Source: a virus | Taxonomy: Duplodnaviria > Caudoviricetes | IMG/VR virus record: IMGVR_UViG_2695420662_000003 | Span: 66,837-130,836 of that record | Strand: one strand, 5' to 3' | DNA: 64,000 nucleotides | Shown here: positions 5,575 to 6,007 of the stretch, one piece after another | How the letters are laid out: every line of letters starts with the position of its first letter | Numbering within the stretch: the first letter of the stretch is position 1 | Made by a program: the position numbers and the translations under genes | The notes under the pieces: model-generated | The model's database searches: none | What the model was told of the DNA's origin: nothing | The model's input: the letters and a program-made list of their open reading frames with translations, nothing else

Positions 5575-5603
5575 TTGTTAAGTATGATAAATTCATATAC
5601 AAT
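5575..5603 (+). promoter_or_regulatory. mazF promoter with ATGATAAATTCAT operator in spacer
   Basis: ttgtta-agtatgataaattcata-tacaat, 17 bp spacer. Confidence 0.7.
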
Positions 5604-5653
5604 TAAAGTATAAATAATAAATATTAATTATACATATAAAGGAGAATTTAAAA

Positions 5654-6007
5654 ATGAAAAGAGAAATATTAAGAGGTCAAATATACTACGCAGATCTAGG
5701 AGCGGCATTCAACAGCGAACAAAGTGGAGTTCGCCCAGTTCTTATAATACAAAATAACGTTGGTAATAAATACAGTCCAACAACAATTATTGCTGCTATT
5801 ACATCATCTCAAAGTAAAGCAAAATTACCTACTCATATTGAATTAAAAGCAAGTGACGTTGAAGGTCTTAATAAAGATTCTATTGTTTTATGTGAGCAAA
5901 TAAGAACTATTGATAAAAAGCGTTTAAAAGAGTTCAGAGGTCAATTAGATGATTATACAATGATGGAAGTTTCGGCAGCAATCCAAACTTCTTTTGGTAT
6001 GTTCTAA
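5654..6007 (+). CDS. mazF: MazF/PemK (EndoA/NdoA-like) endoribonuclease, no adjacent antitoxin
   Basis: RGQIYYADL..SEQSGVRPVLIIQN..SPTTIIAAITS..KAKLPTH..DSIVLCEQIRTIDKKRL closely follows B. subtilis EndoA motifs; catalytic R and T present. Confidence 0.95.
   Translation: MKREILRGQIYYADLGAAFNSEQSGVRPVLIIQNNVGNKYSPTTIIAAITSSQSKAKLPTHIELKASDVEGLNKDSIVLCEQIRTIDKKRLKEFRGQLDDYTMMEVSAAIQTSFGMF

Follow-up and report, generated by a model that had tools for sequence, protein, structure and literature searches.

The mazF1 locus and the search for an antitoxin

The DNA analysed here (the window, 64,000 nucleotides) spans bases 66,837-130,836 of the 130,836-bp virus record IMGVR_UViG_2695420662_000003, which has a G+C content of 28.4% and a 97-bp exact end repeat. 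Its subject is mazF1 (window 5654-6007, + strand), a gene for a 117-amino acid (aa) protein assigned to the EndoA-type MazF/PemK endoribonucleases by profile and structure-relative matches, together with the promoter and leader in front of it and the hexamer UACAUA in the messages of the phage. The sequence-only reading of this locus had described an intact EndoA-like MazF, and that description was borne out. The product matched PF02452 (PemK_toxin) over profile positions 2-109 of 109 (E 7.6e-34; score 116.6 bits, curated cut-off 23.1). A match was also obtained to phrog_1936, annotated as "MazF-like growth inhibitor", at E 8e-33. The closest solved structures were the EndoA/MazF enzymes of Bacillus and Staphylococcus aureus (7bxy, 4hke, 4mzm and 4mdx, E ~1e-34), and full-length identity to such Bacillota enzymes as B. 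subtilis NdoA and S. aureus MazF (4mdx, 4mzm) was ~55%.

Conserved residues were assessed by reading an alignment against the list in PMC8634880, and the equivalents of G6, E20, R25, P26, N36 and T48 were found to be retained. Arg25 and Thr48 (B. subtilis numbering), to which an excerpt of PMC8634880 assigns catalytic and RNA-binding roles, citing Simanshu 2013, correspond to R27 and T50 in MazF1. Unlike EndoA, the protein has changes in the beta1-beta2 loop, where the equivalents of Gly18 and Pro15 are Asn20 and Ala17; in MazF2, a second MazF of the same phage described below, they are His20 and Pro17. Gly18 is thus replaced in both proteins and Pro15 in MazF1, and the conserved pair is present in neither.

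The mazF1 promoter (5575-5603, + strand) consists of a -35 element TTGTTA at 5575-5580, a 17-nt spacer and a -10 element TACAAT at 5598-5603. As a bare sigma-70 match (9/12) it was at chance level, with 15 such sites against 11.7 +/- 3.3 in shuffles. Its spacer contains an operator-like palindrome of 15 bp, TATGATAAATTCATA (TATGA-N5-TCATA, 5583-5597), which was found with at most one mismatch in eight copies in the window against 0.24 expected; a count of eight was reached in 0 of 100 shuffles, and one of the eight copies, at position 6976 inside the TnpB gene, is doubtful. The form TATGATAANTTCATA recurs genome-wide in both orientations, and several copies are flanked by a TTGACA and a TATAAT-like box, spaced as in the mazF1 promoter. 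Because of this excess over expectation and the position of several copies inside promoters, the palindrome was taken to be real and recurrent, and the earlier claim that the mazF1 promoter bears a phage operator-like palindrome was upheld. The spacer of a consensus promoter is a classic repressor position, and a phage repressor probably uses TATGATAANTTCATA as its operator. We infer that mazF1 is co-regulated with the other operator-bearing units, which are located in both arms of the genome.

Individual operator copies were located as follows. The copy at 79-93 (- strand) sits within a TTGACA/TATAAT promoter whose leader contains a hairpin and then AGUACAUAUG (45 to 36). A 565-aa gene has a promoter and an UACAUAUG leader (4635-4644), and the copy at 4700-4714 (- strand) lies upstream of both. 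Two copies (8926-8940 and 9029-9043) occupy the interval 8926-9043 between divergent gene groups. A full module at 19094-19151 (+ strand) has its operator in the spacer (19094-19108), a hairpin with the arms GATAAC/GTTATC, AGUACAUAUG and a Shine-Dalgarno (SD) sequence. A second full module, at 45800-45866 (+ strand) in the late (tail) arm, combines an operator (45800-45814), a 12-bp hairpin, UACAUAUG and an SD in front of the gene at 45882-46646.

The mazF1 leader is a member of this recurrent module family (hairpin, UACAUA, AGGAG). A hairpin formed by GTATAAATAATA and TATTAATTATAC (5608-5633, + strand, -4.4 kcal/mol) is followed by UACAUA at 5631-5636, 4 nt before the SD AGGAG (5640-5644), and the 3' arm of the hairpin covers the UAC of the site. 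The build shared by the family is a stem-loop immediately after the -10 element, then (A)AG-UACAUAU-(G/A)A, then the SD; the sequence of the stem-loop differs from copy to copy. When 14 leader modules were folded, hairpins of -0.3 to -14.5 kcal/mol were obtained, with the same place occupied in most, and a fifteenth leader site that was added had no hairpin. A further site after a leader hairpin and before an SD lies at 9238-9243 (+ strand), upstream of the gene at 9263-9844. Within the window, AGTACATATG was found 15 times against 0.23 expected, with every copy on the locally transcribed strand. The inverted repeat at 5608-5633 was also considered as a recurrent palindrome in its own right and was rejected, being unique in the window.

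No space for a mazE gene upstream of mazF1 had been reported, and this proved correct: the 188-bp gap at 5466-5653 contains + strand open reading frames (ORFs) of 20-22 aa only and none of 23 aa or more, and the neighbour at 4722-5465 is divergent. An adjacent cognate antitoxin of the kind found in type II mazEF operons was therefore not found at mazF1. The whole 130.8-kb phage was also searched. PF04014 (MazE/AbrB) and PF01402 (ribbon-helix-helix) gave 0 matches at E<=1, and all 14 of 14 control genomes gave matches. An EndoAI-like hidden Markov model (HMM), built from 24 upstream ORFs chosen by eye for a "GY.EMA.INL" region, gave a best E of 0.29 against the six frames of the phage. The source loci for this model were the best 80 of 472 bacterial loci encoding MazF relatives (<=68% identical), and upstream ORFs were present at 51 of the 80. 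Across the phage, then, no credible match to an antitoxin of these known families was found, as the earlier reading had supposed. A full-genome search for MazE-, AimX- and YosL-like genes had also been proposed; YosL from the SPBc2 record gave a best E of 2.4 against the six frames; neither a MazE-like nor a YosL-like gene was found, and AimR, AimP and AimX were not searched for.

At 29 of the 80 closest-relative bacterial loci, many of them from rumen Ruminococcus/Clostridiales metagenome-assembled genomes, no upstream same-strand ORF of at least 40 aa was present by mazF, and lone or unusually partnered EndoA-type MazFs may thus be common in chromosomes as well. Lone MazFs are not rare in phages either, with 104 phage-collection records encoding relatives at <=60% identity.

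The description of the toxin as "solo" held for mazF1, which stands alone, and failed for the phage as a whole, which carries a second MazF behind a candidate partner ORF. This gene, mazF2 (contig 19,238-19,597, - strand, outside the window), encodes a 119-aa protein 64% identical to MazF1. Its neighbours are replication genes, and an HNH endonuclease is encoded downstream of it. It is paired with orf95 (pair at contig 19,238-19,977, - strand) in the order TTGACA promoter without operator, orf95 (95 aa, acidic, isoelectric point 4.66), then, after a gap of 92 nt, mazF2, and finally a terminator-like hairpin. From its layout, orf95 is a candidate for an antitoxin of a new kind, pointing to mazF2 alone. 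No Pfam or PHROG family was matched by its product and no paralog was found in the phage. Only four homologue clusters were retrieved, one of them named from Paraclostridium bifermentans (133,850-bp contig), and no match was obtained in viral contigs, plasmids, phages, 238 genomes of one family or the Atlas. The sole metagenome match was rejected as chance, as it falls inside a 770-aa enzyme. An AlphaFold model had a predicted local distance difference test score of 59.6, too low for a fold search.

UACAUA in the phage and its relatives

In order to measure hexamer use in coding sequence, genes were called with our own crude procedure (longest ORFs of at least 60 aa, overlaps filtered; 157 genes, 112 kb), and expected counts were obtained from sense-strand shuffles preserving each protein and its codon usage. 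UACAUA occurred 166 times on the sense strand against 101.1 expected (z 8.8), which ranked it 1 of 790 hexamers; in a repeat run the expectation was 102.8 and the rank 2 of 784. All reading frames contributed (43, 48 and 75 sites for motif starts in frames 0, 1 and 2), the maximal-order Markov expectation was 133, and the reverse complement TATGTA was not enriched (79 against 73). After start-region-like contexts were masked, 150 sites were left against an expectation of 94.3; of 936 hexamers it then ranked 2, exceeded by the overlapping word GTACAT. The excess belonged to the exact word: with the first 30 nt of each gene dropped, it was found 159 times against 98.6 expected and its 18 one-letter variants had ratios of 0.65-1.31, and UACAU followed by C, G or U was not enriched (1.01-1.09). 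Both arms were enriched (left, 105 against 60.1; late, 46 against 24.7), and the mixed accessory region around mazF1 was not (14 against 11.6 in + strand genes, 0 against 1.6 in - strand genes).

The "UACAU-rich mRNAs" of the sequence-only reading were accordingly found in part, since the sense-strand enrichment is strong and yet specific to the 6-mer UACAUA and not the 5-mer. The 5-mer UACAU occurs at 2.5/kb of coding sequence, and 21.7% of genes have at least 4 sites/kb; for SPbeta and phi3T the corresponding figure is 17.5% of genes, and for the B. subtilis chromosome 3.5%, according to an excerpt of the Guler preprint (10.1101/2023.04.27.537455). The two UACAU sites pointed out at mazF1 were both present, the one at 5631 as UACAUA and the one in the coding sequence as UACAUC (5800-5805, + strand). 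The latter, a 5-mer match only and expected by chance at the above density, probably does not count because the selected motif is the 6-mer. Strict U^ACAUA specificity is reported for the B. subtilis, Listeria monocytogenes and S. aureus enzymes in a bioRxiv preprint (10.64898/2026.08.06.743204), and the word UACAUA also appears in search excerpts of papers on S. aureus and Symbiobacterium MazF. The exact-hexamer enrichment matches what such strict specificity of EndoA-type MazFs would lead one to expect.

UACAUA was also concentrated at translation starts. The 60 nt preceding gene starts contained 28 sites in all (2.97/kb), the one in the mazF1 leader among them, against 7 for the reverse complement. 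Among the 102 octamers TACATATG counted genome-wide, 16 supply the start ATG of an ORF behind an SD, 24 lie directly 5' of an SD and 62 lie elsewhere. Two start regions with the order SD-UACAU-AUG are located at window 30750-30780 and 31275-31305. SD-anchored start regions bearing UACAUA numbered 32 of 177 in the phage, the mazF1 leader included. The corresponding counts were 15 of 168 in Psychrobacillus phage Perkons, 9 of 131 in phi3T and 6 of 147 in SPbeta; the values for 14 other phages were 0.5-6.2%, and those for three Clostridium chromosomes were 3/143, 3/157 and 1/143 (0.7-2.1%).

Eighteen phages were compared by one method, with results given here as observed/expected UACAUA, ratio and rank. 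The phage studied, with two MazF genes, had a ratio of 1.62 in the repeat run described above. Enrichment was likewise seen in Perkons (one MazF; 97/61.8, 1.57, rank 3 of 915), G245 (two; 92/51.3, 1.79, rank 1 of 1087), G244 (one; 46/24.1, 1.91, rank 6 of 3514) and G241 (two; 27/13.1, 2.06, rank 73 of 4036), and in these four phages it was again the exact hexamer and not its variants that was raised. MT835478 (one MazF; 30/22.9, 1.31, rank 595 of 2563) was neutral. Depletion was found in G001 (9/18.3, 0.49, rank 2738 of 2908), G002 (8/27.1, 0.29, rank 2085 of 2086), G242 (10/22.7, 0.44, rank 2598 of 2633), G243 (9/20.7, 0.43, rank 2880 of 2924), TR-TP1 (17/27.2, 0.63, rank 1409 of 1462) and CB473P1 (5/26.5, 0.19, rank 1581 of 1588), each with one MazF, and in two of these depleted phages the exact hexamer was the most depleted of the set. 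(G001, G002, G242 and G243 are IMG/VR contigs.)

Among the phages with no MazF gene, the close kin phi3T (111/48.8, 2.27, rank 1 of 1239) and SPbeta (113/54.6, 2.07, rank 1 of 1171) were the most enriched. Both have been coupled to host MazF experimentally, as stated in excerpts of PMC10769878 and 10.1101/2023.04.27.537455. The hexamer signature of these two MazF-coupled phages is present here in full. The remaining phages without MazF were phiCD211 (74/62.9, 1.18, rank 53 of 782), LIBA2945 (78/60.8, 1.28, rank 52 of 790, for the 120 of 132.5 kb read), WRP3 (28/37.2, 0.75, rank 1387 of 1687) and Sundance (28/42.5, 0.66, rank 1589 of 1658), the last of which shows that depletion also occurs without a phage MazF. 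On the sequence evidence, the exact hexamer UACAUA is under selection, here and in other MazF-bearing phages.

Three mazEF-bearing Clostridium chromosomes had UACAUA ratios of 0.81, 0.83 and 0.67, with 0.23-0.33 sites/kb against 1.48/kb in the phage. A ratio of 1.49 obtained for the surroundings of chromosomal mazEF (8 loci, 43 kb) was not confirmed by these larger chromosomal samples (0.67-0.83). Matches to PF00589 were found at least twice in all five enriched MazF phages and not at all in four of the six depleted ones; the lytic-type phage WRP3 has two such matches too, and the link between recombinase and lifestyle is only a hint.

This large clostridial phage had been called SPbeta-like, and this was not confirmed. 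When the portal protein was used as the only query, the best matches were the Clostridioides phages phiCD211/phiCDIF1296T (~131 kb), with 32% identity to phiCD211 (131.7-kb genome) over 96% of the length, and SPbeta was absent among 25 listed of 90 portal matches. The phage is therefore distantly phiCD211-like, judged by its portal. No close relative was found in a portal scan of viral contigs, and megablast of window 4700-6500 against phages gave no match. A MazF gene is absent from phiCD211 and LIBA2945, which makes the MazF genes accessory to the phage lineage.

Genes of the left arm include a DNA ligase, a beta-CASP/RMMBL nuclease, topoisomerase subunits, NrdD, a DNA polymerase III alpha subunit and a plasmid-type Rep3 initiator (Rep3_N + Rep3_C; contig 64,228-65,325, + strand), and those of the window include two tyrosine recombinases, an FtsK-like gene (15288-16880), a sigma factor, a portal, a tape measure protein and an endolysin. 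The combination of Rep3, the FtsK-like gene and two tyrosine recombinases suggests a phage-plasmid lifestyle. The nuclease, encoded in the replication arm (contig 7,319-8,791, - strand), is a 490-aa protein of the RNase J/CPSF type with beta-CASP and RMMBL (RNA-specificity) domains, and could act as a processor of MazF cleavage products.

Possible roles of the phage MazFs

The best explanation of mazF1 is that it forms part of the phage's own regulatory design, rather than being an orphaned toxin from a toxin-antitoxin pair. That the phage directs an RNase of its own at its mRNAs is a proposal that we regard as evenly balanced. Such control would operate through mazF1 transcribed alone from an operator-bearing promoter of the recurrent phage type and likely silenced, along with many other phage promoters, by a shared DNA-binding protein. 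The lytic messages of the replication and structural arms are loaded with UACAUA, inside coding regions too, and about one gene in five has it at the start region, either 5' of the SD or between the SD and the AUG; in promoter-proximal leaders, the pre-SD site is placed behind the 5' hairpin. MazF activity from the two phage genes, and possibly from the host enzyme also, would cut at U^A, so that a message would lose its 5' hairpin or have its ribosome binding site severed from the AUG, and the cutting would damp or time phage gene expression. As the mazF1 leader itself carries UACAUA, expression would be self-limiting, with a lesser need for an antitoxin. By inference, MazF1 would cut UACAUA, cleavage would reduce expression, and the consequences would be felt in lysogeny, in the maintenance of a plasmid-prophage or in timing. 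The more elaborate form of the proposal, an own MazF regulon in which a genome-wide UACAUA code would be read by antitoxin-less, self-limiting phage MazFs and would set lytic progress, is offered tentatively, as less likely than not. In a broader version of this idea, MazF-bearing phages would follow two opposite designs, one self-targeting with the site enriched and one self-immune with the site purged. The sequence-only reading had supposed that the phage internalised the toxin and uses it on its own UACAU-rich mRNAs; the lone intact MazF, the operator promoter and the hexamer enrichment fit that account, and the SPbeta-like label, the single toxin and the 5-mer do not.

Several observations weigh against a phage enzyme acting on phage messages. 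Among the 12 MazF-bearing large phages, 5 were enriched, 1 was neutral and 6 were depleted (0.19-0.63) in UACAUA. As to the correlation of mazF presence with UACAU(A) enrichment that had been proposed as a check, these phages are thus not uniform, and MazF carriage alone is no predictor of enrichment. The sample is small, with G001, G002 and G242 sharing one metagenome and G243 and G245 another, so that contigs of common origin may be related, and the gene calls behind the counts are crude. The enrichment was possibly written for host MazF alone, as in SPbeta and phi3T, which leaves the phage-enzyme reading unproven. At mazF1 itself, the U^A bond of the leader site sits in the base of a weak hairpin. 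The loop changes also count here. In an alignment of 40 MazF sequences, chosen from 120 listed relatives, the Gly18 column held Gly in 33/40, His in 5/40 (the mazF2 clade) and Asn in 2/40 (the mazF1 clade). According to an excerpt of PMC8634880, Gly18 of B. subtilis MazF contacts RNA through a bond to the second base of the site, and MazF-Da lost its activity when G18A was introduced. The MazF1 enzyme could be weak, altered or inactive on account of these changes, and the replacement of the Gly18 equivalent in both clades means that the specificity or activity of B. subtilis MazF is not assured for either protein.

The same substitutions are what an account in which the phage MazFs act as decoys would draw on: catalytically weak, they would bind host MazE, and the freed host MazF would cut the UACAUA-rich phage messages. 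Such proteins would need no antitoxin because they would be non-toxic, which agrees with the failure to find an antitoxin of known families; the UACAUA signature equals that of the host-MazF-using phages, and a precedent is mentioned in an excerpt of 10.64898/2026.08.06.743204, which states, with a citation, that SroA and SroB of phi3T compete for MazE and thereby activate host MazF. Against this, the catalytic Arg25/Thr48 equivalents and most RNA-contact residues are kept between paralogs only 64% identical, and the Asn and the His are each conserved within their own clade, suggesting a working loop and not decay. The decoy account is considered quite improbable. Somewhat better placed, though still unlikely, is the possibility that the two genes are addiction or defence cargo, that is, toxin-antitoxin-type modules of a plasmid-like prophage serving post-segregational killing, abortive infection or exclusion of other phages. 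Their antitoxins would be unrecognised (orf95 for mazF2 and, in trans, for mazF1; alternatively a small RNA or protein), and the motif enrichment would be unrelated or due to host MazF. The Rep3 plasmid initiator, the FtsK-like gene and the two tyrosine recombinases are in keeping with such cargo, as are the phiCD211-type elements that are the nearest named relatives among 25 listed of 90 portal matches, the toxin-antitoxin-like layout of orf95 and mazF2, and the filing of phage MazFs by PHROGs under "moron / host takeover". In addition, one orf95 homologue cluster is on a 14,431-bp contig and a mazF2-type protein is likewise on a 14,431-bp contig. Imported cargo would not be expected to look like mazF1, which has no partner ORF and is set on a phage operator promoter and leader module. 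For orf95, neither a known family nor a usable model was obtained, and mazF1 has no paralog of it nearby; the exact-hexamer enrichment and its start-region placement are left unexplained.

A host-shutoff weapon, in which lytic-phase MazF1 destroys host mRNA and phage messages are spared, is judged very improbable for this phage. The operator-controlled promoter does suggest expression alongside lytic genes, and elsewhere 6 of the 12 MazF-bearing phages are strongly depleted in the site (for example, CB473P1 with 5 against 26.5 and G002 with 8 against 27.1), which would suit a strategy of this kind in those phages. The phage studied is the opposite case, with 1.48 sites/kb against 0.23-0.33 in Clostridium chromosomes and sites in its start regions.

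The favoured reading, a phage RNase that cuts phage messages, can be set beside known systems. Chromosomal EndoA shares the retained catalytic Arg and Thr equivalents, and its U^ACAUA site is the word enriched in the phage; unlike it, mazF1 has no upstream mazE and no alr-mazE-mazF setting, is phage-borne and exists in two diverged copies. The messages of phi3T and SPbeta, which work through host MazEF, AimX and YosL, are rich in MazF sites, with UACAUA ranking first there and first or second here, and the notion of a lytic programme held back by MazF activity comes from these phages. They encode inhibitors and no MazF, whereas the phage here has two MazFs and no YosL homologue was found by the search given above; its structural genes, judged by the portal, resemble those of phiCD211 and not those of SPbeta, and start-region placement is far rarer in phi3T and SPbeta than here. 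T4 RegB, a phage-encoded sequence-specific endoribonuclease, has an established role in cutting GGAG in the ribosome binding sites of early mRNAs. The likeness is one of functional logic, in that a phage-owned RNase would have its short target motif at the translation starts of messages from the same phage; the two enzymes are unrelated in sequence, the motif and fold are different, and the role here is a proposed one. ORF37 of Perkons (PHROG 1936) is of the same family as MazF1, has no upstream MazE and lies behind an Spx-like gene. Perkons shares the UACAUA enrichment and part of the start-region placement; the phage here differs in having the strongest start-region signal and mazF1 on an operator promoter.

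Lone phage MazFs are already known from PHROGs and annotated records, and MazF-site 5-mer enrichment is already known in SPbeta and phi3T. In a literature search covering listings and abstracts, no paper was located in which a phage-encoded MazF is given a function. Nor did that search yield an account of UACAUA at the translation starts of phages, or of MazF-bearing phages dividing into an enriched and a depleted group. Bacterial MazF is familiar as a toxin restrained by an antitoxin, and Bacillus MazF has recently been described as a precise regulator exploited by SPbeta-type phages. If the favoured reading is true, a toxin would have been domesticated as a viral regulator of gene expression, with a logic comparable to that of T4 RegB. 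The rank of UACAUA among sense-strand hexamers would serve as a simple genomic read-out for MazF-coupled phages, and the enriched/depleted split is a directly testable hypothesis.

Features around mazF1

The product of the divergent gene upstream of mazF1 (4722-5465, - strand) is 247 aa long, has a hydrophobic segment at its N-terminus and contains a HEIGH (HExxH) motif; no Pfam, NCBIfam or PHROG family was matched. The gene has a sigma-70-type promoter scoring 12/12 at 5534 to 5506 (- strand), and UACAUAUG lies over its start codon (5470 to 5463).

A perfect 12-bp inverted repeat with a 17-nt loop (6003-6043) overlaps the mazF1 stop codon. It was not called by a terminator scan because a T-run is absent after the repeat, and it is a possible terminator shared with a convergent 39-aa ORF.

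Further downstream, a 63-aa helix-turn-helix (HTH) gene (6282-6473, - strand) is followed by a TnpB/IS605 OrfB gene (6697-7947, - strand). Two exact copies of the 17-mer AATTGCATATTTGCAAC (6492-6508 and 6561-6577) lie between the HTH gene and the 3' end of TnpB/IS605 OrfB. This 17-mer was rejected as a mazF palindrome, since it flanks the HTH gene instead, and the pair could be an operator for the HTH protein or part of an insertion sequence end.

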